From: Lingula anatina
Lineage: Eukaryota; Animalia; Brachiopoda
Length of the DNA: 64,000 nt
Assembly (NCBI GenBank): GCA_051362555.1
Contig: CM120647.1
Location: forward strand, 12,190,651 to 12,254,650
Direction: 5' to 3'
Within the stretch, counting starts at the first letter, position 1. Every line of letters begins with the position of its first letter. Shown here one piece after another: positions 1 through 19,200 of the stretch. The notes under the pieces were generated by a model. That model did no database searches, was not told the origin of the DNA, and was given only the letters and a program-made list of their open reading frames with translations. Made by a program: the position numbers and the translations under genes.

Positions 1-897
1 CCACGATATTAAAGAGCACAGTGGGATCAGAGGCGGTTCACAACAGACGGGGTTTACTTTTAGCGAGACCATAAGAGGAGAGAATAAAAAAAAATACATT
101 CAAGTAGTCTGTAATTACTGGTGCGATTGCAGCCATGGAAATTTTGAGTAAAGTATTATTGGCAAATAATTAAGCCGAGGAGATATAGTTTTTCTACCGA
201 ACACGGTTAACAGGTGGTATGACGGGCTGTTATACCGTAAAAAGCTGCAGAATCAAAACAACTTGGATCGTATTCATTGATAGGCCTCCTCTGTATGTTC
301 CTATTAAGACGACTTCGGAAGTTTTTTTTTTTTTTCTTTCTTTTTGGTTTTGCGTTGAGAGAACGCTTGGTTTCACCTTTGACGTTGTAGAGCACGAGGA
401 CGGCCACAGCTGTTCATACCTCTGCGGTTTTAGTATTGAGTAGTCTTTACTCTTTCCAATATCGACTGCGGACTTGCCACGGTACTGTATGGTCATATGA
501 ACAGTCTTGAGAAGCAAGGGCCCAAGATAGGAAAGGAGGGGCATTAAAAGACAAAACGTGTGCCTGATAAAAGGAATAGAGGTGACGCGACTTCTGTAAA
601 AAAAAAATCAAAAGTTTTCTCTCTTCTAATCCCACCAAGAAGAAAGCACATTTTGATGAAATGCAAGCCATACGGAGTTAGTTATAGCTCAATTTAAGTT
701 CAAGATCTTTGGCACCAATATAAGGACTTTTAACTGAAGAGAAAGGAAATATAATTGTCGACGCAGATGTAAACTGTCTAAAGTATACCGTATTATTAGG
801 CAAAAGGTAATTTGCTAAGTCCCACGAGCGCCCTCATTCGTTCTCGTCTCGTGACATCCCGATTCAGGGGCTAGGTCGTTGTCGTGAAGGACTGACG

Positions 898-1002
898 TGC
901 CTCATCCGGGACTCGAACCCGTGACCTTGCGTTACCAAGGTTGATGACGCTTTGGATGTCTCATTTGCATCCTTGCACGCTACCGACTGCTCCGTGACAG
1001 AC
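898..1002 (-). ncRNA. Degenerate tRNA-like Pol III element (element 1 of the array unit; copies start at ~2304, 3716, 5128, 6532, 10760, 12164, 13566, 14970, 16371, 17775, 19181, 26136, 27532)
   Basis: Minus strand reads GTCTGTCACGGAGCAGTCGGTAGCGTG-CAAGG...CCTTG...AGGTCACGGGTTCGAGTCCCGGATGAGGCA. It has an A-box/D-loop-like motif (983-994), a perfect B box GGTTCGAGTCC (909-919) inside a T-arm CGGG/CCCG, and a CAAGG/CCTTG stem at anticodon-stem spacing enclosing 30 nt. Acceptor and D stems pair poorly, so it is not a canonical tRNA. Confidence 0.6.
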
Positions 1003-1074
1003 CCGCCCACCCTCCGTACGTGCGAGTTTCCTCTTAAAGTAATCAATGGCAATTTTGAAGAAGTCAATTCTGGC

Positions 1075-1173
1075 AAAAAAAGAATGACACAGTAGCTCCT
1101 GTGACTCGAACCAGCGTCCGAGTATTTGTCTGTATGCCAGGCAGCAGAGTTACCACGCAGCCACGACAGCTCC
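1075..1173 (-). ncRNA. ~100-nt putative Pol III transcript with A box, B box and T7 terminator (element 2 of the array unit; vault-RNA-like panhandle or tRNA-Ser-derived); one copy per unit
   Basis: Minus strand reads GGAGCTGTCG-TGGCTGCGTGG (A box)-TAACT...GGTTCGAGTCA (B box)-CAGGAGCT...TTTTTTT. The 5' AGCT..GTGGCTGCG can pair with the 3' CGAGTCAC..AGCT. Confidence 0.45.
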
Positions 1174-4100
1174 GTTGATACGCAGTGATCAGATGGTAAC
1201 TTTCAACCTCGTCACGGAGAGCGCCAGATTGGGTGTACATGTGCAGGCCTGCTGTCCCAATCGACAATCCGGGAGCCGCCTTTCAGCCCACGCAACCCCA
1301 GTCCCCGACATGAACGGTAAATTTCAGTGATGCACACGAAGTCGTGTTTGTCAACCCGACTCGGAGCTCGGAGTTTGTTTTATACTAAGATTGATTTTGG
1401 CTTTACCCACGATATTAAAGAGCACAGTGGGATCAGAGGCGGTTCACAACAGACGGGGTTTACTTTTAGCGAGACCATAAGAGGAGAGAATAAAAAAAAA
1501 TACATTCAAGTAGTCTGTAATTACTGGTGCGATTGCAGCCATGGAAATTTTGAGTAAAGTATTATTGGCAAATAATTAAGCCGAGGAGATATAGTTTTTC
1601 TACCGAACACGGTTAACAGGTGGTATGACGGGCTGTTATACCGTAAAAAGCTGCAGAATCAAAACAACTTGGATCGTATTCATTGATAGGCCTCCTCTGT
1701 ATGTTCCTAGTAAGACGACTTCGGAAGTTTTTTTTTTTTTTCTTTCTTTTTGGTTTTGCGTTGAGAGAACGCTTGGTTTCACCTTTGACGTTGTAGAGCA
1801 CGAGGACGGCCACAGCTGTTCATACCTCTGCGGTTTTAGTATTGAGTAGTCTTTACTCTTTCCAATATCGACTGCGGACTTGCCACGGTACTGTATGGTC
1901 ATATGAACAGTCTTGAGAAGCAAGGGCCCAAGATAGGAAAGGAGGGGCATTAAAAGACAAAACGTGTGCCTGATAAAAGGAATAGAGGTGACGCGACTTC
2001 TGTAAAAAAAAAATCAAAAGTTTTCTCTCTTCTAATCCCACCAAGAAGAAAGCACATTTTGATGAAATGCAAGCCATACGGAGTTAGTTATAGCTCAATT
2101 TAAGTTCAAGATCTTTGGCACCAATATAAGGACTTTTAACTGAAGAGAAAGGAAATATAATTGTCGACGCAGATGTAAACTGTCTAAAGTATACCGTATT
2201 ATTAGGCAAAAGGTAATTTGCTAAGTCCCACGAGCGCCCTCATTCGTTCTCGTCTCGTGACATCCCGATTCAGGGGCTAGGTCGTTGTCGTGAAGGACTG
2301 ACGTGCCTCATCCGGGACTCGAACCCGTGACCTTGCGTTACCAAGGTTGATGACGCTTTGGATGTCTCATTTGCATCCTTGCACGCTACCGACTGCTCCG
2401 TGACAGACCCGCCCACCCTCCGTACGTGCGAGTTTCCTCTTAAAGTAATCAATGGCAATTTTGAAGAAGTCAATTCTGGCAAAAAAAGAATGACACAGAA
2501 GCTCCTGTGACTCGAACCAGCGTCCGAGTATTTGTCTGTATGCCAGGCAGCAGAGTTACCACGCAGCCACGACAGCTCCGTTGATACGCAGTGATCAGAT
2601 GGTAACTTTCAACCTCGTCACGGAGAGCGCCAGATTGGGTGTACATGTGCAGGCCTGCTGTCCCAATCGACAATCCGGGAGCCGCCTTTCAGCCCACGCA
2701 ACCCCAGTCCCCGACATGAACGGTAAATTTCAGTGATGCACACGAAGTCGTGTTTGTCAACCCGACTCGGAGCTCGGAGTTTGTTTTATACTAAGATTGA
2801 TTTTGGCTTTACCCACGATATTAAAGAGCACAGTGGGATCAGAGGCGGTTCACAACAGACGGGGTTTACTTTTAGCGAGACCATAAGAGGAGAGAATAAA
2901 AAAAAATACATTCAAGTAGTCTGTAATTACTGGTGCGATTGCAGCCATGGAAATTTTGAGTAAAGTATTATTGGCAAATAATTAAGCCGAGGAGATATAG
3001 TTTTTCTACCGAACACGGTTAACAGGTGGTATGACGGGCTGTTATACCGTAAAAAGCTGCAGAATCAAAACAACTTGGATCGTATTCATTGATAGGCCTC
3101 CTCTGTATGTTCCTAGTAAGACGACTTCGGAAGTTTTTTTTTTTTTTTTTTTTTCTTTCTTTTTGGTTTTGCGTTGAGAGAACGCTTGGTTTCACCTTTG
3201 ACGTTGTAGAGCACGAGGACGGCCACAGCTGTTCATACCTCTGCGGTTTTAGTATTGAGTAGTCTTTACTCTTTCCAATATCGACTGCGGACTTGCCACG
3301 GTACTGTATGGTCATATGAACAGTCTTGAGAAGCAAGGGCTCGTGATAAGAAAGGAGGGGCATTAAAAGACAAAACGTGTGCCTGATAAAAGGAATAGAG
3401 GTGACGCGACTTCTGTAAAAAAAAATCAAAAGTTTTCTCTCTTCTAATCCCACCAAGAAGAAAGCACATTTTGATGAAATGCAAGCCATACGAAGTTAGT
3501 TATAGCTCAATTTAAGTTCAAGATCTTTGGCACAAATATAAGGACTTTTAACTGAAGAGAAAGGAAATATAATTGTCGACGCAGATGTAAACTGTCTAAA
3601 GTGTACCGTATTATTATTCAAAAGGTAATATGCTAAGTCCCACGAGCGCCCTCATTCGTTCTCGTCTCGTGACATCCCGATTCAGGGGCTAGGTCGTTGT
3701 CGTGAAGGACTGACGTGCCTCATCCGGGACTCGAACCCGTGACCTTGCGTTACCAAGGTTGATGACGCTTTGGATGTCTCATTTGCATCCTTGCACGCTA
3801 CCGACTGCTCCGTGACAGACCCGCCCACCCTCCGTACGTGCGAGTTTCCTCTTAAAGTAATCAATGGCAATTTTGAAGAAGTCAATTCTGGCAAAAAAAG
3901 AATGACACATTAGCTCCTGTGACTCGAAACAGCGTCCGAGTATTTGTCTGTATGCCAGGCAGCAGAGTTACCACGCAGCCACGACAGCTCCGTTGATACG
4001 CAGTGATCAGATGGTAACTTTCAACCTCGTCACGGAGAGCGCCAGATTGGGTGTACATGTGCAGGCCTGCTGTCCCAATCGACAATCCGGGAGCCGCCTT

Positions 4101-7100
4101 TCAGCCCACGCAAACCCAGTCCCCGACATGAACGGTAAATTTCAGTGATGCACACGAAGTCGTGTTTGTCAACCCGACTCGGAGCTCGGAGTTTGTTTTA
4201 TACTAAGATTGATTTTGGCTTTACCAACGATATTAAAGAGCACAGTGGGATCAGAGGCGGTTCACAACAGACGGGGTTTACTTTTAGCAAGACCATAAGA
4301 GGAGAGAATAAAAAAAAAAAAATACATTCAAGTAGTCTGTAATTACTGGTGCGATTGCAGCCATTGGAATTTTGAGTAAAGTATTATTGGCAAATAATTA
4401 AGCCGAGGAGATATAGTTTTTCTACCGAACACGGTTAACTGGTGGTGTGACGGGCTGTTATACCGTAAAAGCTGCAGAATCAAAACAACTTGGATCGTAT
4501 TCATTGATAGGCCTGCTCTGTATGTTCCTAGTAAGACGACTTCGGAAGTTTTTTTTTTTTTTTTTCTTTCTTTTTGGTTTTGCGTTGAGAGAACGCTTGG
4601 TTTCACCTTTGACGTTGTAGAGCACGAGGACGGCCACAGCTGTTCATACCTCTGCGGTTTTAGTATTGAGTAGTCTTTACTCTTTCCAATATCGACTGCG
4701 GACTTGCCACGGTACTGTATGGTCATATGAACAGTCTTGAGAAGCAAGGGCCCAAGATAGGAAAGGAGGGGCATTAAAAGACAAAACGTGTGCCTGATAA
4801 AAGGAATAGAGGTGACGCGACTTCTGTAAAAAAAAAATCAAAAGTTTTCTCTCTTCTAATCCCACCAAGAAGAAAGCACATTTTGATGAAATGCAAGCCA
4901 TACGGAGTTAGTTATAGCTCAATTTAAGTTCAAGATCTTTGGCACCAATATAAGGACTTTTAACTGAAGAGAAAGGAAATATAATTGTCGACGCAGATGT
5001 AAACTGTCTAAAGTATACCGTATTATTAGGCAAAAGGTAATTTGCTAAGTCCCACGAGCGCCCTCATTCGTTCTCGTCTCGTGACATCCCGATTCAGGGG
5101 CTAGGTCGTTGTCGTGAAGGACTGACGTGCCTCATCCGGGACTCGAACCCGTGACCTTGCGTTACCAAGGTTGATGACGCTTTGGATGTCTCATTTGCAT
5201 CCTTGCACGCTACCGACTGCTCCGTGACAGACCCGCCCACCCTCCGTACGTGCGAGTTTCCTCTTAAAGTAATCAATGGCAATTTTGAAGAAGTCAATTC
5301 TGGCAAAAAAAGAATGACACAGTAGCTCCTGTGACTCGAACCAGCGTCCGAGTATTTGTCTGTATGCCAGGCAGCAGAGTTACCACGCAGCCACGACAGC
5401 TCCGTTGATACGCAGTGATCAGATGGTAACTTTCAACCTCGTCACGGAGAGCGCCAGATTGGGTGTACATGTGCAGGCCTGCTGTCCCAATCGACAATCC
5501 GGGAGCCGCCTTTCAGCCCACGCAACCCCAGTCCCCGACATGAACGGTAAATTTCAGTGATGCACACGAAGTCGTGTTTGTCAACCCGACTCGGAGCTCG
5601 GAGTTTGTTTTATACTAAGATTGATTTTGGCTTTACCCACGATATTAAAGAGCACAGTGGGATCAGAGGCGGTTCACAACAGACGGGGTTTACTTTTAGC
5701 GAGACCATAAGAGGAGAGAATAAAAAAAAAATACATTCAAGTAGTCTGTAATTACTGGTGCGATTGCAGCCATGGAAATTTTGAGTAAAGTATTATTGGC
5801 AAATAATTAAGCCGAGGAGATATAGTTTTTCTACCGAACACGGTTAACAGGTGGTATGACGGGCTGTTATACCGTAAAAGCTGCAGAATCAAAACAACTT
5901 GGATCGTATTCATTGATAGGCCTGCTCTGTATGTTCCTAGTAAGACGACTTCGGAAGTTTTTTTTTTTTCTTTCTTTTTGGTTTTGCGTTGAGAGAACGC
6001 TTGGTTTCACCTTTGACGTTGTAGAGCACGAGGACGGCCACAGCTGTTCATACCTCTGCGGTTTTAGTATTGAGTAGTCTTTACTCTTTCCAATATCGAC
6101 TGCGGACTTGCCACGGTACTGTATGGTCATATGAACAGTCTTGAGAAGCAAGGGCCCAAGATAGGAAAGGAGGGGCATTAAAAGACAAAACGTGTGCCTG
6201 ATAAAAGGAATAGAGGTGACGCGACTTCTGTAAAAAAAAAATCAAAAGTTTTCTCTCTTCTAATCCCACCAAGAAGAAAGCACATTTTGATGAAATGCAA
6301 GCCATACGGAGTTAGTTATAGCTCAATTTAAGTTCAAGATCTTTGGCACCAATATAAGGACTTTTAACTGAAGAGAAAGGAAATATAATTGTCGACGCAG
6401 ATGTAAACTGTCTAAAGTATACCGTATTATTAGGCAAAAGGTAATTTGCTAAGTCCCACGAGCGCCCTCATTCGTTCTCGTCTCGTGACATCCCGATTCA
6501 GGGGCTAGGTCGTTGTCGTGAAGGACTGACGTGCCTCATCCGGGACTCGAACCCGTGACCTTGCGTTACCAAGGTTGATGACGCTTTGGATGTCTCATTT
6601 GCATCCTTGCACGCTACCGACTGCTCCGTGACAGACCCGCCCACTCCGTACGTGCGAGTTTCCTCTTAAAGTAATCAATGGCAATTTTGAAGAAGTCAAT
6701 TCTGGCAAAAAAAGAATGACACAGTAGTTCCTGTGACTTGAACCAGCGTCCGAGTATTTGTCTGTATGCCAGGCAGCAGAGTTACCACGCAGCCACGACA
6801 GCTCCGTTGATACGCAGTGATCAGATGGTAACTTTCAACCTCGTCACGGAGAGCGCCAGATTGGGTGTACATGTGCAGGCCTGCTGTCCCAATCGACAAT
6901 CCGGGAGCCGCCTTTCAGCCCACGCAACCCCAGTCCCCGACATGAACGGTAAATTTCAGTGATGCACACGAAGTCGTGTTTGTCAACCCGACTCGGAGCT
7001 CGGAGTTTGTTTTATACTAAGATTGATTTTGGCTTTACCCACGATATTAAAGAGCACAGTGGGAACAGAGGCGGTTCACAACAGACGGGGTTTACTTTTA

Positions 7101-7530
7101 GCGAGACCATAAGAGGAGAGAATAAAAAAAAATACATTCAAGTAGTCTGTAATTACTGGTGCGATTGCAGCCATGGAAATTTTGAGTAAAGTATTATTGG
7201 CAAATAATTAAGCCGAGGAGATATAGTTTTTCTACCGAACACGGTTAACAGGTGGTATGACGGGCTGTTATACCGTAAAAGCTGCAGAATCAAAACAACT
7301 TGGATCGTATTCATTGATAGGCCTGCTCTGTATGTTCCTAGTAAGACGACTTCGGAAGTTTTTTTTTTTTCTTTCTTTTTGGTTTTGCGTTGAGAGAACG
7401 CTTGGTTTCACCTTTGACGTTGTAGAGCACGAGGACGGCCACAGCTGTTCATACCTCTGCGGTTTTAGTATTGAGTAGTCTTTACTCTTTCCAATATCGA
7501 CTGCGGACTTGCCACGGTACTGTATGTAGT

Positions 7531-7633
7531 AAATAATGCACTGTCCACGAGCCCGATATCCACGATAGCAGGCCGAGCGTCAGCGAGGCATGCTATCGTG
7601 GATATCGGGCGAGGGGGTAACAGTGCATTATTT
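7531..7633 (+). other. Left subterminal hairpin of the Crypton
   Basis: Outer arms AAATAATGCACTGT/ACAGTGCATTATTT; perfect 20-bp inner arms 7551-7570 and 7591-7610; tip GCC-GA-GC-GTCA-GC-GA-GGC. Confidence 0.9.
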
Positions 7634-7969
7634 GTCATACATACTAAGGGAAATCGTGCATGTTCCTCACCCAAACCCCCTAACTTTGAATAGAACACGC
7701 TGATATCACCGCGCATGGAGTGATATCAAAGAATGGACTTTTCCCGCGCTTACGCCGATAGTTTCTGTCTAATTGTGGTCACCGTCCAATTATTTTCATT
7801 TGTGTGAATGGTTTGTGGTTGCGTGTGCTTTGCCGGAGATATGGGTCAGTGGTTTTTCTGTGAGAAGTTGGCTGCCCATCTCCCGCACGTGGCAGTTTCC
7901 TGCCCATCTCCCGCACGTGGCAGTCACTCTCATTCATTTTTCGGCAAAGCTGACAGCTACATTGTAGAA

Positions 7970-10064
7970 ATGCTGTTTTCTGATGTTTCGGACGATGAAC
8001 TCGTGAGCGCAAGTCAAACGGCAGAGAAATCTCATTATGAAACTGTGCAACAATTTTCTGACATTTCTGACGACGAACTTATAAGCGCAAGTCAAAAGGC
8101 AGAGAAGTCTCATTTTGAAACTGTGCAACAATTTTCTGACATTTCGGACGACGAACTTATAAGCGCAAGTCAAAATGCAGAAATGTGTTATTTAGACGCG
8201 AAGCAGCAGCAGGAGCAGCAGGCTTTCTCGGCTGAGATGAAGGTGCGTATAACAAAAATACACATTTTTCATTTATGTTTATCTTTTCCATATGTATTAC
8301 CACTACATAATTATACGACAAAATGCATTTGTACCTTGACATTTGAACGGATGAGATTCATTGCTTTCGAAAAACGTGAAAATTGACATATTTGACAAAA
8401 TGCGTTTTCTTATGATATTATCCTGTTTTTAAGAGGGGAATAGCAGTAAAAGGTTCGCTATCCCAGTAACAGATGAGGAAATGGAGTTGCGCTCAAAAGC
8501 AAGCTTACCTAAGAACACGTTGCGTCGTAACATGTGGGCACTTAATACATGGAATAAGTGGGCAGTGGCGCGAAACAACACACGGTTGCACGGTTATCAA
8601 GGAAACGACATTGCCATTAATAAATGGAATAAAATAATGAAACCACTGACAAATCTCTCTGACGAGGAACTTCAGTACTGGATATCCAAATTTATACTGG
8701 AGGTGAGAAAAGAGAACGGTACGGAATATCCTCCAAGGACACTCCTGTCCCTTGTGATGGGACTGCAGAGTTACATTCGCACTGAGTCGAAGCGAGGGAT
8801 TGATTTATTAAATTCTGATCAATTTGTGGGTCTCCGACAAGTATTAGATTCTGAGATGAAACGTCTTTCTCATACTGGCCTTGGATGTAACACCAAAAAG
8901 GCCCAAGCAATTTCTTTGGAGGATGAAAGCAAGCTGTGGTCATCGAAAGCGCTGGGCGACTATAATCCCAAAGTACTCGTGCGTACACTGCACTATTTGA
9001 ATGGCAAAAATTTCGGATTACGAGGTGGACAGGAACATCGACGACTGCAATATAAATCACCTCAAATTACGCTCCACGAACCTGAAGGTGAAATTGCTTA
9101 TTTGAAATATTCAGAAGACGTCTCTAAAACGTGTCAAGGTGGCCTAAAACATCGCAAATTAGTACCAAAGCAAGTGACCCATTTTGCTAACGCAGACTGC
9201 CCGGAGCGATGCCATGTAAGGATTTACAAGAAATATATGGAATTATCCCCCAAAGATAACAGAGACGATTCTTTTTACCTCCAGCCTTTGCAGAAATGGC
9301 GGGAAAACGTATGGTTTAGTCGACAGCCGATTGGTGTGAATACCCTGTCAAACTTCACCCGAGAAACGTGTGAAAAGGCTGGCCTGAAAGGATTCTACAC
9401 CAACCACTCTCTGCGGGCAACTACTGCGACGCGTCTCTTTCGGAGAGGTGTCGATGAGCAGCTAATTATGACCAAAACAGGGCATCGTTCAGTCGAAGGT
9501 AAATATCATCAATACCATACATAGACAGCAAAATTTAAGTGCGTGTAACTGTTTTGTATTAATCTAAAATTTCACAATAATTTAGATTAATTCTTGATTG
9601 TCTCTCAACTGCTGTTGGCCTAGACTCCAGGCAAATTCATTTTGCCCGGAAGATCCCCACTGATGTCTTTTTAAGTATTATTTTATTTTATAGTACTAAT
9701 GGGTTTATGCACAGATTTTACAACATACACTTTGGTTACAATCAATTGTGATGTTATTTTCATTTACTCATTTATTAGGGAAAGGGGCTCATATTTTACC
9801 AGTATATTATCCTTTAGTATTATTTCGTTTCTTTCGGATATGTTTCTAGGCGTTCGTTCATATACACGGCCGTCTGAACAACAGGAACAACACATCAGCA
9901 GAATCCTTGACGGGAGTGATGATGGTCCGACGCCGCCGAAAATACGCACTCAGACAGACGTCAGTGATGAAAGTGTAACACAAACAGATTCTTCTTTGAG
10001 TAGACTTATCGATTTAACAAATCAGCCGGTTGTATTTCAGAATTGCAATTTCCAATTTCATTAA
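7970..10064 (+). CDS. Crypton tyrosine recombinase (DUF3504/ZMYM-QRICH1-KCTD1-like domain); spliced, exons ~7970-8242, ~8436-9498, 9850-10064
   Basis: Motifs EVRKENGTEYPP, FGLRGGQEHR (Arg), SKTCQGG (Lys), TNHSLRAT (His-x-x-Arg) and TGHRS (His). GT-AG intron 9499-9849 restores EG-VRSY, with the presumed catalytic Tyr at 9861-9863. The first donor AAG|GTGCGT (8243) is clear but its acceptor is uncertain. Confidence 0.88.
7976..8180 (+). repeat. 78-bp coding tandem repeat (26-aa acidic motif FSDISDDELISASQxAEKSHxETVQQ, ~2.6 copies) in the Crypton N-terminal exon
   Basis: Visible in the translation of ORF 7808-8386. Confidence 0.85.
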
Positions 10065-10126
10065 AATATAAATTAAATGCCTGACGTTGTTTCCTTCTTA
10101 TTTTTCTGTTTTCAGTGACTATTCAT

Positions 10127-10246
10127 GTAAAATTCGAGAAAAAAAGCGAGATATCGAGCTTTTTTTCGAGGATTTTACCGAGTCACCACGAGACACGCTA
10201 TCATAAAGTGCGAGCGAAAGCGAGCACTTTTTGATAGCGGGTCGAG
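10127..10246 (+). other. Two right subterminal hairpins of the Crypton (10127-10178 and ~10189-10246)
   Basis: GTAAAATTC-GA-GAAAAAAAGC-GA-GATATC-GA-GCTTTTTTTC-GA-GGATTTTAC, and CGCTATCATAAAGTGC-GA-GCGAAAGC-GA-GCACTTTTTGATAGCG. Confidence 0.88.
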
Positions 10247-13200
10247 TTAACAGCATTGTTTGTGTGAACTGAACCATGCGGTTGGTTGGGCAGTAACAAT
10301 GATATCAGTCCCTGCAATCCTTTTGTTTAGATATCAGCCCCGTGGTATGTATGGTCATATGAACAGTCTTGAGAAGCAAGGGCCCAAGATAGGAAAGGAG
10401 GGGCATTAAAAGACAAAACGTGTGCCTGATAAAAGGAATAGAGGTGACGCGACTTCTGTAAAAAAAAAATCAAAAGTTTTCTCTCTTCTAATCCCACCAA
10501 GAAGAAAGCACATTTTGATGAAATGCAAGCCATACGGAGTTAGTTATAGCTCAATTTAAGTTCAAGATCTTTGGCACCAATATAAGGACTTTTAACTGAA
10601 GAGAAAGGAAATATAATTGTCGACGCAGATGTAAACTGTCTAAAGTATACCGTATTATTAGGCAAAAGGTAATTTGCTAAGTCCCACGAGCGCCCTCATT
10701 CGTTCTCGTCTCGTGACATCCCGATTCAGGGGCTAGGTCGTTGTCGTGAAGGACTGACGTGCCTCATCCGGGACTCGAACCCGTGACCTTGCGTTACCAA
10801 GGTTGATGACGCTTTGGATGTCTCATTTGCATCCTTGCACGCTACCGACTGCTCCGTGACAGACCCGCCCACCCTCCGTACGTGCGAGTTTCCTCTTAAA
10901 GTAATCAATGGCAATTTTGAAGAAGTCAATTCTGGCAAAAAAAGAATGACACAGTAGTTCCTGTGACTCGAACCAGCGTCCGAGTATTTGTCTGTATGCC
11001 AGGCAGCAGAGTTACCACGCAGCCACGACAGCTCCGTTGATACGCAGTGATCAGATGGTAACTTTCAACCTCGTCACGGAGAGCGCCAGATTGGGTGTAC
11101 ATGTGCAGGCCTGCTGTCCCAATCGACAATCCGGGAGCCGCCTTTCAGCCCACGCAACCCCAGTCCCCGACATGAACGGTAAATTTCAGTGATGCACACG
11201 AAGTCGTGTTTGTCAACCCGACTCGGAGCTCGGAGTTTGTTTTATACTAAGATTGATTTTGGCTTTACCCACGATATTAAAGAGCACAGTGGGAACAGAG
11301 GCGGTTCACAACAGACGGGGTTTACTTTTAGCGAGACCATAAGAGGAGAGAATAAAAAAAAAATACATTCAAGTAGTCTGTAATTACTGGTGCGATTGCA
11401 GCCATGGAAATTTTGAGTAAAGTATTATTGGCAAATAATTAAGCCGAGGAGATATAGTTTTTCTACCGAACACGGTTAACAGGTGGTATGACGGGCTGTT
11501 ATACCGTAAAAGCTGCAGAATCAAAACAACTTGGATCGTATTCATTGATAGGCCTGCTCTGTATGTTCCTAGTAAGACGACTTCGGAAGTTTTTTTTTTT
11601 TCTTTCTTTTTGGTTTTGCGTTGAGAGAACGCTTGGTTTCACCTTTGACGTTGTAGAGCACGAGGACGGCCACAGCTGTTCATACCTCTGCGGTTTTAGT
11701 ATTGAGTAGTCTTTACTCTTTCCAATATCGACTGCGGACTTGCCACGGTACTGTATGGTCATATGAACAGTCTTGAGAAGCAAGGGCCCAAGATAGGAAA
11801 GGAGGGGCATTAAAAGACAAAACGTGTGCCTGATAAAAGGAATAGAGGTGACGCGACTTCTGTAAAAAAAAAATCAAAAGTTTTCTCTCTTCTAATCCCA
11901 CCAAGAAGAAAGCACATTTTGATGAAATGCAAGCCATACGGAGTTAGTTATAGCTCAATTTAAGTTCAAGATCTTTGGCACCAATATAAGGACTTTTAAC
12001 TGAAGAGAAAGGAAATATAATTGTCGACGCAGATGTAAACTGTCTAAAGTATACCGTATTATTAGGCAAAAGGTAATTTGCTAAGTCCCACGAGCGCCCT
12101 CATTCGTTCTCGTCTCGTGACATCCCGATTCAGGGGCTAGGTCGTTGTCGTGAAGGACTGACGTGCCTCATCCGGGACTCGAACCCGTGACCTTGCGTTA
12201 CCAAGGTTGATGACGCTTTGGATGTCTCATTTGCATCCTTGCACGCTACCGACTGCTCCGTGACAGACCCGCCCACCCTCCGTACGTGCGAGTTTCCTCT
12301 TAAAGTAATCAATGGCAATTTTGAAGAAGTCAATTCTGGCAAAAAAAGAATGACACAGTAGTTCCTGTGACTCGAACCAGCGTCCGAGTATTTGTCTGTA
12401 TGCCAGGCAGCAGAGTTACCACGCAGCCACGACAGCTCCGTTGATACGCAGTGATCAGATGGTAACTTTCAACCTCGTCACGGAGAGCGCCAGATTGGGT
12501 GTACATGTGCAGGCCTGCTGTCCCAATCGACAATCCGGGAGCCGCCTTTCAGCCCACGCAACCCCAGTCCCCGACATGAACGGTAAATTTCAGTGATGCA
12601 CACGAAGTCGTGTTTGTCAACCCGACTCGGAGCTCGGAGTTTGTTTTATACTAAGATTGATTTTGGCTTTACCCACGATATTAAAGAGCACAGTGGGAAC
12701 AGAGGCGGTTCACAACAGACGGGGTTTACTTTTAGCGAGACCATAAGAGGAGAGAATAAAAAAAAATACATTCAAGTAGTCTGTAATTACTGGTGCGATT
12801 GCAGCCATGGAAATTTTGAGTAAAGTATTATTGGCAAATAATTAAGCCGAGGAGATATAGTTTTTCTACCGAACACGGTTAACAGGTGGTATGACGGGCT
12901 GTTATACCGTAAAAGCTGCAGAATCAAAACAACTTGGATCGTATTCATTGATAGGCCTGCTCTGTATGTTCCTAGTAAGACGACTTCGGAAGTTTTTTTT
13001 TTTCTTTCTCTTTGGTTTTGCGTTGAGAGAACGCTTGGTTTCACCTTTGACGTTGTAGAGCACGAGGACGGCCACAGCTGTTCATACCTCTGCGGTTTTA
13101 GTATTGAGTAGTCTTTACTCTTTCCAATATCGACTGCGGACTTGCCACGGTACTGTATGGTCATATGAACAGTCTTGAGAAGCAAGGGCCCAAGATAGGA

Positions 13201-16200
13201 AAGGAGGGGCATTAAAAGACAAAACGTGTGCCTGATAAAAGGAATAGAGGTGACGCGACTTCTGTAAAAAAAAAATCAAAAGTTTTCTCTCTTCTAATCC
13301 CACCAAGAAGAAAGCACATTTTGATGAAATGCAAGCCATACGGAGTTAGTTATAGCTCAATTTAAGTTCAAGATCTTTGGCACCAATATAAGGACTTTTA
13401 ACTGAAGAGAAAGGAAATATAATTGTCGACGCAGATGTAAACTGTCTAAAGTATACCGTATTATTAGGCAAAAGGTAATTTGCTAAGTCCCACGAGCGCC
13501 CTCATTCGTTCTCGTCTCGTGACATCCCGATTCAGGGGCTAGGTCGTTGTCGTGAAGGACTGACGTGCCTCATCCGGGACTCGAACCCGTGACCTTGCGT
13601 TACCAAGGTTGATGACGCTTTGGATGTCTCATTTGCATCCTTGCACGCTACCGACTGCTCTGTGACAGACCCGCCCACCCTCCGTACGTGCGAGTTTCCT
13701 CTTAAAGTAATCAATGGCAATTTTGAAGAAGTCAATTCTGGCAAAAAAAGAATGACACAGTAGCTCCTGTGACTCGAACCAGCGTCCGAGTATTTGTCTG
13801 TATGCCAGGCAGCAGAGTTACCACGCAGCCACGACAGCTCCGTTGATACGCAGTGATCAGATGGTAACTTTCAACCTCGTCACGGAGAGCGCCAGATTGG
13901 GTGTACATGTGCAGGCCTGCTGTCCCAATCGACAATCCGGGAGCCGCCTTTCAGCCCACGCAACCCCAGTCCCCGACATGAACGGTAAATTTCAGTGATG
14001 CACACGAAGTCGTGTTTGTCAACCCGACTCGGAGCTCGGAGTTTGTTTTATACTAAGATTGATTTTGGCTTTACCCACGATATTAAAGAGCACAGTGGGA
14101 TCAGAGGCGGTTCACAACAGACGGGGTTTACTTTTAGCGAGACCATAAGAGGAGAGAATAAAAAAAAATACATTCAAGTAGTCTGTAATTACTGGTGCGA
14201 TTGCAGCCATGGAAATTTTGAGTAAAGTATTATTGGCAAATAATTAAGCCGAGGAGATATAGTTTTTCTACCGAACACGGTTAACAGGTGGTATGACGGG
14301 CTGTTATACCGTAAAAAGCTGCAGAATCAAAACAACTTGGATCGTATTCATTGATAGGCCTGCTCTGTATGTTCCTAGTAAGACGACTTCGGAAGTTTTT
14401 TTTTTTTTTTTTCTTTTTGGTTTTGCGTTGAGAGAACGCTTGGTTTCACCTTTGACGTTGTAGAGCACGAGGACGGCCACAGCTGTTCATACCTCTGCGG
14501 TTTTAGTATTGAGTAGTCTTTACTCTTTCCAATATCGACTGCGGACTTGCCACGGTACTGTATGGTCATATGAACAGTCTTGAGAAGCAAGGGCCCATGA
14601 TAAGAAAGGAGGGGCATTAAAAGACAAAACGTGTGCCTGATAAAAGGAATAGAGGTGACGCGACTTCTGTAAAAAAAAATCAAAAGTTTTCTCTCTTCTA
14701 ATCCCACCAAGAAGAAAGCACATTTTGATGAAATGCAAGCCATACGGAGTTAGTTATAGCTCAATTTAAGTTCAAGATCTTTGGCACAAATATAAGGACT
14801 TTTAACTGAAGAGAAAGGAAATATAATTGTCGACGCAGATGTAAACTGTCTAAAGTATACCGTATTATTATTCAAAAGGTAATTTGCTAAGTCCCACGAG
14901 CGCCCTCATTCGTTCTCGTCTCGTGACATCCCGATTCAGGGGCTAGGTCGTTGTCGTGAAGGACTGACGTGCCTCATCCGGGACTCGAACCCGTGACCTT
15001 GCGTTACCAAGGTTGATGACGCTTTGGATGTCTCATTTGCATCCTTGCACGCTACCGACTGCTCCGTGACAGACCCGCCCACCCTCCGTACGTGCGAGTT
15101 TCCTCTTAAAGTAATCAATGGCAATTTTGAAGAAGTCAATTCTGGCAAAAAAAGAATGACACAGTAGCTCCTGTGACTCGAACCAGCGTCCGAGTATTTG
15201 TCTGTATGCCAGGCAGCAGAGTTACCACGCAGCCACGACAGCTCCGTTGATACGCAGTGATCAGATGGTAACTTTCAACCTCGTCACGGAGAGCGCCAGA
15301 TTGGGTGTACATGTGCAGGCCTGCTGTCCCAATCGACAATCCGGGAGCCGCCTTTCAGCCCACGCAACCCCAGTCCCCGACATGAACGGTAAATTTCAGT
15401 GATGCACACGAAGTCGTGTTTGTCAACCCGACTCGGAGCTCGGAGTTTGTTTTATACTAAGATTGATTTTGGCTTTACCCACGATATTAAAGAGCACAGT
15501 GGGATCAGAGGCGGTTCACAACAGACGGGGTTTACTTTTAGCGAGACCATAAGAGGAGAGAATAAAAAAAAATACATTCAAGTAGTCTGTAATTACTGGT
15601 GCGATTGCAGCCATGGAAATTTTGAGTAAAGTATTATTGGCAAATAATTAAGCCGAGGAGATATAGTTTTTCTACCGAACACGGTTAACAGGTGGTATGA
15701 CGGGCTGTTATACCGTAAAAGCTACAGAATCAAAACAACTTGGATCGTATTTATTGATAGGCCTGTTCTGTATGTTCCTAGTAAGACGACTTCGGAAGTT
15801 TTTTTTTTCTTTCTCTTTGGTTTTGCGTTGAGAGAACGCTTGGTTTCACCTTTGACGTTGTAGAGCACGAGGACGGCCACAGCTGTTCATACCTCTGCGG
15901 TTTTAGTATTGAGTAGTCTTTACTCTTTCCAATATCGACTGCGGACTTGCCACGGTACTGTATGGTCATATGAACAGTCTTGAGAAGCAAGGGCCCAAGA
16001 TAGGAAAGGAGGGGCATTAAAAGACAAAACGTGTGCCTGATAAAAGGAATAGAGGTGACGCGACTTCTGTAAAAAAAAAATCAAAAGTTTTCTCTCTTCT
16101 AATCCCACCAAGAAGAAAGCACATTTTGATGAAATGCAAGCCATACGGAGTTAGTTATAGCTCAATTTAAGTTCAAGATCTTTGGCACCAATATAAGGAC

Positions 16201-19200
16201 TTTTAACTGAAGAGAAAGGAAATATAATTGTCGACGCAGATGTAAACTGTCTAAAGTATACCGTATTATTAGGCAAAAGGTAATTTGCTAAGTCCCACGA
16301 GCGCCCTCATTCGTTCTCGTCTCGTGACATCCCGATTCAGGGGCTAGGTCGTTGTCGTGAAGGACTGACGTGCCTCATCCGGGACTCGAACCCGTGACCT
16401 TGCGTTACCAAGGTTGATGACGCTTTGGATGTCTCATTTGCATCCTTGCACGCTACCGACTGCTCTGTGACAGACCCGCCCACCCTCCGTACGTGCGAGT
16501 TTCCTCTTAAAGTAATCAATGGCAATTTTGAAGAAGTCAATTCTGGCAAAAAAAGAATGACACAGTAGCTCCTGTGACTCGAACCAGCGTCCGAGTATTT
16601 GTCTGTATGCCAGGCAGCAGAGTTACCACGCAGCCACGACAGCTCCGTTGATACGCAGTGATCAGATGGTAACTTTCAACCTCGTCACGGAGAGCGCCAG
16701 ATTGGGTGTACATGTGCAGGCCTGCTGTCCCAATCGACAATCCGGGAGCCGCCTTTCAGCCCACGCAACCCCAGTCCCCGACATGAACGGTAAATTTCAG
16801 TGATGCACACGAAGTCGTGTTTGTCAACCCGACTCGGAGCTCGGAGTTTGTTTTATACTAAGATTGATTTTGGCTTTACCCACGATATTAAAGAGCACAG
16901 TGGGATCAGAGGCGGTTCACAACAGACGGGGTTTACTTTTAGCGAGACCATAAGAGGAGAGAATAAAAAAAAAATACATTCAAGTAGTCTGTAATTACTG
17001 GTGCGATTGCAGCCATGGAAATTTTGAGTAAAGTATTATTGGCAAATAATTAAGCCGAGGAGATATAGTTTTTCTACCGAACACGGTTAACAGGTGGTAT
17101 GACGGGCTGTTATACCGTAAAAGCTGCAGAATCAAAACAACTTGGATCGTATTCATTGATAGTCCTGCTCTGTATGTTCCTAGTAAGACGACTTCGGATG
17201 TTTTTTTTTTTCTTTCTTTTTGGTTTTGCGTTGAGAGAACGCTTGGTTTCACCTTTGACGTTGTAGAGCACGAGGACGGCCACAGCTGTTCATACCTCTG
17301 CGGTTTTAGTATTGAGTAGTCTTTACTCTTTCCAATATCGACTGCGGACTTGCCACGGTACTGTATGGTCATATGAACAGTCTTGAGAAGCAAGGGCCCA
17401 AGATAGGAAAGGAGGGGCATTAAAAGACAAAACGTGTGCCTGATAAAAGGAATAATGGTGACGCGGCTTCTGTAAAAAAAAAAATCAAAAGTTTTCTCTC
17501 TTCTAATCCCACCAAGAAGAAAGCACATTTTGATGAAATGCAAGCCATACGGAGTTAGTTATAGCTCAATTTAAGTTCAAGATCTTTGGCACCAATATAA
17601 GGTCTTTTAACTGAAGAGAAAGGAAATATAATTGTCGACGCAGATGTAAACTGTCTAAAGTATACCGTATTATTAGGCAAAAGGTAATTTGCTAAGTCCC
17701 ACGAGCGCCCTCATTCGTTCTCGTCTCGTGACATCCCGATTCAGGGGCTAGGTCGTTGTCGTGAAGGACTGACGTGCCTCATCCGGGACTCGAACCCGTG
17801 ACCTTGCGTTACCAAGGTTGATGACGCTTTGGATGTCTCATTTGCATCCTTGCACGCTACCGACTGCTCCGTGAGAGACCCGCCCACCCTCCGTACGTGC
17901 GAGTTTCCTCTTAAAGTAATCAATGGCAATTTTGAAGAAGTCAATTCTGGCAAAAAAAGAATGACACAGTAGCTCCTGTGACTCGAACCAGCGTCCGAGT
18001 ATTTGTCTGTATGCCAGGCAGCAGAGTTACCACGCAGCCACGACAGCTCCGTTGATACGCAGTGATCAGATGGTAACTTTCAACCTCGTCACGGAGAGCG
18101 CCAGATTGGGTGTACATGTGCAGGCCTGCTGTCCCAATCGACAATCCGGGAGCCGCCTTTCAGCCCACGCAACCCCAGTCCCCGACATGAACGGTAAATT
18201 TCAGTGATGCACACGAAGTCGTGTTTGTCAACCCGACTCGGAGCTCGGAGTTTGTTTTATACTAAGATTGATTTTGGCTTTACCCACGATATTAAAGAGC
18301 ACAGTGGGATCAGAGGCGGTTCACAACAGACTGGGTTTACTTTTAGCGAGACCATAAGAGGAGAGAATAAAAAAAAAAATACATTCAAGTAGTCTGTAAT
18401 TACTGGTGCGATTGCAGCCATGGAAATTTTGAGTAAAGTATTATTGGCAAATAATTAAGCCGAGGAGATATAGTTTTTCTACCGAACACGGTTAACAGGT
18501 GGTATGACGGGCTGTTATACCGTAAAAAGCTGCAGAATCAAAACAACTTGGATCGTATTCATTGATAGGCCTGCTCTGTATGTTCCTAGTAAGACGACTT
18601 CGGAAGTTTTTTTTTTTTTTTTTCTTTTTGGTTTTGCGTTGAGAGAACGCTTGGTTTCACCTTTGACGTTGTAGAGCACGAGGACGGCCACAGCTGTTCA
18701 TACCTCTGCGGTTTTAGTATTGAGTAGTCTTTACTCTTTCCAATATCGACTGCGGACTTGCCACGGTACTGTATGGTCATATGAACAGTCTTGAGAAGCA
18801 AGGGCCCATGATAAGAAAGGAGGGGCATTAAAAGACAAAACGTGTGCCTGATAAAAGGAATAGAGGTGACGCGACTTCTGTAAAAAAAAATCAAAAGTTT
18901 TCTCTCTTCTAATCCCACCAAGAAGAAAGCACATTTTGATGAAATGCAAGCCATACGGAGTTAGTTATAGCTCAATTTAAGTTCAAGATCTTTGGCACAA
19001 ATTTAAGGACTTTTAACTGAAGAGAAAGGAAATATAATTGTCGACGCAGATGTAAACTGTCTAAAGTATACCGTATTATTATTCAAAAGGTAATTTGCTA
19101 AGTCCCACGAGCGCCCTCATTCGTTCTCGTCTCGTGACATCCCGATTCAGGGGCTAGGTCGTTGTCGTGAAGGACTGACGTGCCTCATCCGGGACTCGAA

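Follow-up and report, generated by a model that had tools for sequence, protein, structure and literature searches.

Why do the hairpins at the ends of a recombinase-encoding transposon repeat one and the same non-Watson-Crick motif, and does that motif mark one strand of the DNA as the active one? We examined this question in a 64,000-nucleotide stretch of the genome of the brachiopod Lingula anatina (the window; contig CM120647.1, positions 12,190,651 to 12,254,650 of the forward strand). An original prediction, made from the letters of this stretch, held that tandem G.A mismatches render three terminal hairpins strand-specific and imply selection on the folded plus strand.

The element and its recombinase

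The hairpins lie in an element that, judged by its gene, catalytic set, ends, copy pattern and animal host, is of the CryptonA type. It comprises the following features.

7526..10352, plus strand: CryptonA-type DNA transposon of 2,827 bp, inserted after TAT within one unit of a 1.4-kb host tandem repeat
7970..10064, plus strand: tyrosine recombinase gene with three exons (7970-8242, 8433-9498 and 9850-10064) and a single product of 517 aa
10303..10352, plus strand: right end retained in short non-autonomous copies (joint 7929 to 10303, found in 4 of 4 DNA runs and in 4 RNA reads)
10344-52, plus strand: first arm-like word, GGTATGTAT, which closes the right end; the identical nine letters terminate the related element L008

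The boundaries were taken from empty repeat units in the window and from a 2,827-bp skip in all four DNA runs, and loose ends of RNA reads at 7523 and 10352 mark the edges of the insert. The 1.4-kb host repeat spans 465-18749, approximately the first 19 kb of the window, with 12 matches to the marker of one unit and one unit interrupted; its contig depth was very high in the DNA runs. Comparison of empty and filled repeat units revealed neither terminal inverted repeats nor a true target duplication, and in relatives the only short homology at the ends is 2-3 bp of shared TA(N). Within 7526-10352 we found no inverted terminal repeats and no reverse transcriptase or RNase H frame; nor does the element contain a Rep gene, the recombinase being its only gene. 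Scans of the window for tRNAs and Rfam families (the latter at gathering score, SECIS and others included) returned no matches.

Host copies were viewed via contigs of the four DNA runs. These contain non-autonomous derivatives with joints from 7929 to 10303 and from 7824 to 10303, showing a multi-copy element, and the varied flanks around it in RNA reads fit multiple copies. Contig depth was approximately tenfold higher over the left end than over the gene, a ratio of depth that does not equate to copy number.

The recombinase matches DUF3504 (E = 1.7e-33) and Phage_integrase (E = 2e-8) in Pfam, and is 99% identical to a protein record named from L. anatina. All of the catalytic residues are present (R288, H416, R419, H442 and Y451; motifs LRGG, HSLR, TGH and RSY), and this intact R-H-R-(H)-Y set appears to separate the product from the domesticated ZMYM/QRICH1 gene. 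The predicted structure (pLDDT 84.5) matched the folds of QRICH1 and Cre, with Cre at E = 1e-7 compared with 2e-4 for the integron integrase 2a3v, which is no closer; the predicted fold is silent on the form of the substrate. Position 8432 is A in this copy and mostly G in contigs of the four DNA runs. The A removes the AG acceptor of intron 1, and this copy is probably spliced incorrectly. The N terminus of the recombinase is encoded by three 78-bp acidic, SDDEL-like repeats (7976-8209), and loci of the L001 family carry long expansions of a similar upstream repeat.

Terminal hairpins and their tandem G.A mismatches

Three hairpins, here called H1 to H3, flank the gene.

7533..7644, plus strand: left hairpin H1, a long stem that starts 7 nt from the terminus
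7549-50/7611-12 and 7575-76/7585-86, plus strand: GA/GA loops of H1, with the cap GC-GTCA-GC at 7579-82
10127..10178, plus strand: right subterminal hairpin H2, with GA/GA loops at 10136-37/10168-69 and 10148-49/10156-57, 10 bp apart
10189..10246, plus strand: right subterminal hairpin H3, with GA/GA loops at 10190-91/10244-45 and 10212-13/10222-23
10216-19, plus strand: H3 cap GC-GAAA-GC

All six symmetric C-GA-G/C-GA-G loops that had been predicted were located, two in each hairpin, together with the two predicted GC-GNNA-GC caps (GTCA in H1 and GAAA in H3, both on the plus strand); the tip of H2 is one G-C pair and ATAT. The stability in DNA that was ascribed to sheared G.A pairs and to mini-hairpins of this type agrees with published work, in which NMR of DNA hairpins found that CGAG/CGAG forms sheared pairs (PMC10085684) and GCGN(N)AGC caps are described as far more stable in DNA than in RNA and as present at phage and plasmid priming sites (PMC13037366).

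In the non-coding ends, 12 of the 13 plus-strand CGAG words fall inside symmetric GA/GA loops. The complementary word CTCG occurs three times, always in the coding region and never in the non-coding ends. A scan of the whole window for two-by-two loops found GA/GA at 7 of 583 positions (6 with repeats dropped), four of them inside the element. Folding energies were far below those of shuffled sequences for the plus strand (z = -12.6 for H1 and -7.8 for H2 and H3 together) and also for the minus strand (z = -11.9 and -7.1). The predicted strand specificity was thus upheld in part: the models give the plus strand an advantage of 3.5-3.7 kcal/mol, but both strands fold well in silico, and 'strand-specific' is, on these calculations, a matter of local structure and not of fold versus no fold.

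To assess conservation, we scanned metagenomes and obtained 39 loci in several families, with approximately 40-55% protein identity to the window element; candidates in viral contigs (47) and genome contigs (13) included no relatives. Because the families are related by descent and a single assembly series supplied most of the loci, the counts that follow are not independent. Left ends were examined in seven families (the window element, L008, L001, L005, L023, L020 and L038), and in all seven the coding strand has one or more GA/GA loops. Six of the seven have a CGA-GC-GN(N)A-GC-GAG cap, and the GC-GNA-GC form of the cap varies at N. When 11 hairpins of the seven families were aligned arm to arm (tips anchored by the motif, and two misaligned non-autonomous hairpins excluded), GA/GA accounted for 20 of 24 two-by-two loops and TC/TC for none. 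A blind survey beside stems of at least 12 bp gave GA/GA in 8 of 26 loops, from five families, compared with 0 of 13 in the background formed by the 44 kb of the window outside the element; its single TC/TC loop belongs to an inverted element. Scored across Crypton families in these two ways, as the original prediction had proposed, mismatch types are non-random.

The stems have changed around these loops. Between the window element and L008, 15 stem pairs differ and are still paired, 30 are identical and 3 are unpaired, and the loops are unchanged. The closing pairs also differ among families yet stay Py-GA-Pu (CGAG/CGAG, CGAA/TGAG and TGAA/TGAA), and near-identical copies have fixed GA positions save for single changes. 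Collectively, the coding-strand loops in 7 of 7 families, the changed stems and the covarying closing pairs support the predicted selection on the folded plus strand, and comparative sequence evidence indicates that the hairpins are real, conserved Crypton end structures under plus-strand selection and not products of decay.

The original prediction treated the three hairpins as equivalent, and this is not supported. H2 and H3 are missing from the L001 and L005 families, which have other right-end hairpins without GA/GA, and from the short host copies with the 7929-to-10303 joint, which keep H1 and the last 50 bp of the element. As these copies skip H2 and H3, the two are not needed in cis. 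Only one other family, L008, has a matching layout, with different stems and the cap GC-GAA-GC for H3. H2 and H3 therefore look like selected but accessory plus-strand structures of one clade, and could serve the full-length element as, for example, a priming or protective signal. Four RNA runs with 15-49 reads each, none over 10028-10223, were too few for mapping of transcript ends.

Related caps also occur elsewhere. A different short host repeat carries GCGAGCGAGCGAAGCGAGCGAG, a doubled GA/GA with a GAA cap and without a long stem (L029:4600-4630; L010:405-430; L022, minus strand, near 1019 and 1089; and L013, minus strand, near 1703), sometimes in 70-bp tandem units, and the cap is thus not exclusive to Crypton left ends. 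In viral contigs, the cap motif was found in 122 stretches in 27 of 64 parts (approximately 300 estimated), compared with 36 for a GA-to-AG control. We set these stretches aside as evidence: the longer stem is mostly missing (15 of 149 have at least 6 of 10 flanking pairs), and they may be coding.

Joined ends, target sites and strand polarity

Beyond its mismatches, and beyond what the original prediction described, H1 has a foot that copies the junction formed when the two ends of the element are joined.

7526..7532, plus strand: 7-nt junction spacer at the left terminus, a putative recombinase spacer, with the same geometry in L008, L005, L001 and L023
From 7533, plus strand: second recombinase-arm-like word, directly after the 7-nt spacer
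7625..7644, plus strand: H1 foot, which repeats the joined ends in inverted orientation around a 5-nt spacer (7632-36); its segment 7637-44 is the complement of the right terminus

The foot is complementary to the right end and then to the left end of the element. In the modelled junction of the window element, the foot pairs with 13 of the final 16 nt at the right end, as a unique best match (8/9). Across five elements, 11-14 of these 16 nt pair in every case, with the complement of the right end being the unique best match in just three. In all five families (the window element, L008, L005, L001 and L023), the junction reads TAW-7 nt-WTA and its inverted foot copy TAW-5 nt-WTA; the L020 foot likewise has a 5-nt spacer. 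Folds of the modelled junctions were lower in energy for the plus strand in four of five (in one by just 0.4 kcal/mol) and for the minus strand in L005, by 0.9 kcal/mol. The modelled junction also occurs naturally, in tandem joints of L026, L030/L032 and L031. Joints of this head-to-tail kind link different Crypton families (L026:3243 and 3559, L030:2178, L031:4122 and L032:2479), as if one element had inserted exactly at the right end of another. At L026:382-1954, the left end resembles that of the L005 family at 97%, and the attached recombinase gene resembles the L005 one at only approximately 67%, a discrepancy that suggests swapping of ends between families.

The flanks of relatives define the target. 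Of the 21 distinct non-tandem left flanks, 17 have TA at -3/-2, and 10 of 21 right flanks have it at +8/+9; both are raw counts made by eye, with four reverse-strand self-hits dropped. Targets take the form TA-N8-TA, symmetrical around a 6-bp centre. Neither duplex copy of the junction, with 7 or 5 nt, fits this 6-bp spacing; a folded 7/5 hybrid averages 6. With queries that excluded the spacer itself, we found that 22 of the 23 distinct left ends retain the element spacer (the lone exception, L025, is rearranged), as do none of 21 right ends outside tandem joints. The cut made by a tyrosine recombinase falls where the arm meets the first base of the spacer (PMC4246890). Given this cut site, the one-sided retention points, indirectly, to the plus strand, which also bears the GA/GA loops, as the only strand transferred. 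Junction polarity is thus an independent indication that the strand under selection is the one exchanged. A double exchange with unbiased segregation would be expected to leave two classes of junction; the polarity could alternatively arise from biased repair after a double exchange.

A proposed folded-strand route and its alternatives

We consider it probable, from the sequences compared here, that the folded plus strand is the substrate and that insertion involves one exchange of this strand only, followed by replication. The H1 foot would pair with the joined ends to form a bulged recombination site, in which folding gives a 7/5 spacer averaging the 6 of the target and the bulge would block a second exchange. 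The enzyme would cut after TAW on the plus strand and join this strand to the target, and host replication would finish insertion. Folding of the plus strand would start from, and be marked by, sheared GA/GA pairs and GNA or GNNA caps, and in excision the H1 foot may likewise splint the two ends. The exchanged strand could be a free circle or be extruded from the duplex. Against this reading stand the folding of the minus strand, the dispensability of H2 and H3 in cis, the unique best matches in only three of five elements, the relatedness of the families compared, a predicted fold no nearer to integron integrase than to Cre, and the clean excision recorded for CryptonF. A further-reaching version, which we put forward tentatively as somewhat short of probable, would make CryptonA a eukaryotic single-strand transposon: the foot would splint the ends, the plus strand alone would peel out as a circle and leave the donor intact, the same fold would integrate, the sheared-G.A code would mark the active strand, and H2 and H3 would be host-primase signals of the autonomous circle.

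The mechanism of Cryptons is described in PMC13565253 as undemonstrated by experiment, with a double-stranded circle assumed. In that published model (the Goodwin model; PMC3212892 and PMC13565253), the duplex junction would be the site, and the hairpins would extrude as cruciforms or take part in copying the circle as accessory or priming signals. The junction does have inverted arm-like words around its 7-bp spacer, priming sites of phages and plasmids carry GCGAAAGC-type caps (PMC13037366), and clean excisions of CryptonF are recorded in Chlamydomonas (PMC9977147). A duplex circle, however, accounts neither for a foot whose copy of both ends is shorter by exactly two bases in five of five families nor for the split in spacer retention between left and right ends, and we regard it as unlikely. 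The hairpins might instead act as RNA, in the 5' leader and the 3' UTR, where structures with tandem G.A pairs would regulate expression or bind the enzyme. H2 and H3 lie downstream of the stop codon and travel with the full-length element only, and GAAA is also an RNA tetraloop (PMC13037366). Yet the caps are mostly GNA triloops or GTCA/GCCA, a DNA-type motif; H1 begins 7 nt from the terminus and is retained in copies without the gene; ATTAAA words at 10060 and 10072 precede H2; and junction complementarity and spacer polarity are left unexplained. A role as RNA is on balance improbable, with H2 and H3 the more plausible candidates for it than H1.

Two further explanations make the mismatches incidental. 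CGAG, of which one strand of the ends has 13 copies, might be a direct-repeat binding site for a protein on duplex DNA and the mismatches a by-product, but 12 of the 13 words are exactly opposed in stems, and other families have CGAA/TGAG or TGAA/TGAA with closing pairs that are still complementary; we judge this very improbable. Random decay or micro-inversion of once perfect palindromes, which the original prediction had already argued against, is hardly credible. Transposons often have palindromic ends, and some copies are indeed decayed (L024, L025 and L038), but neither 20 GA/GA against no TC/TC loops nor GA positions fixed in near-identical copies fit with it, and the 15 compensated pairs relative to L008 show stems maintained with their loops kept.

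The folded-strand route is known from bacteria and is not shown for Cryptons. The element resembles described CryptonA elements (PMC3212892; Glomhopper, PMC13465315) in its single DUF3504 recombinase with an intact tetrad, absence of terminal inverted repeats, short homology at the insertion site and abundant non-autonomous copies. Published animal Cryptons are described as lacking terminal repeats (PMC3212892), whereas here a subterminal hairpin carries an inverted copy of the joined ends and a conserved mismatch code. Our literature search, with Repbase Reports and most subscription papers outside its reach, found no description of Crypton hairpin ends or of the H1-foot design; the words 'hairpin', 'palindrom' and 'inverted' are absent from the accessible supplements of PMC3212892, as are 'hairpin' and 'palindrom' from the accessible text of PMC13465315.

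A close parallel is attP(+) of CTXphi, recombined by XerCD (PMC4246890), in which a pair of inverted recombinase sites separated by approximately 90 nt becomes a single site when the plus strand folds, a single strand is exchanged and replication completes integration; the Crypton likeness lies, in silico, in the 7-nt versus 5-nt spacers. CTXphi differs in using host Xer and only dif, and in having its own Rep, whereas the Crypton has its own enzyme, a loose TA-N8-TA target and no Rep. By analogy, Crypton ends would work like the folded attP(+) without being a member of that system. Integron attC sites, recombined by IntI, share conservation of structure over sequence and minimal crossover homology, and their strand choice by unpaired bases and replicative resolution would be shared under the folded-strand reading; they differ in having single extrahelical bases, an enzyme encoded apart and a whole site per cassette (PMC4792948). 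The Crypton site would exist only once both ends are joined, with a TAW/WTA core in place of RYYYAAC/GTTRRRY and no cassette array. DIRS elements also combine a tyrosine recombinase with an internal segment complementary to the start and end of the element (PMC6681497); they differ in their reverse transcriptase and inverted terminal repeats, both missing here, and the Crypton segment is the foot of the left-end hairpin. IS200/IS605 elements, which move by peel-and-paste, have strand-specific subterminal hairpins, a single-stranded circle and hairpin-foot sequences that pair with cleavage sites (PMC13565253; PMC3201880), but use an HUH (Y1) enzyme and a single-stranded target and not a tyrosine recombinase.

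The ends define exact substrates in the form of the joined ends, the 7/5 folded site, the TA-N8-TA target and the active strand. If the folded-strand route is correct, the single-strand recombination of integrons and CTXphi would also operate in animal genomes, and it would explain how an element without a replicase gains copies. Annotators would gain a rule for locating Crypton ends, which are hard to define, and the fold would hint at the DNA shapes read by the ancestors of ZMYM, QRICH1 and KCTD1 proteins.

The word GATATC also recurs in the non-coding ends, at 7555, 7601, 7702, 7722, 10150, 10301 and 10330. The whole element has 8 copies, compared with 7 in 44 kb elsewhere, and two lie within the right end kept by short copies; GATATC may be an accessory binding word.
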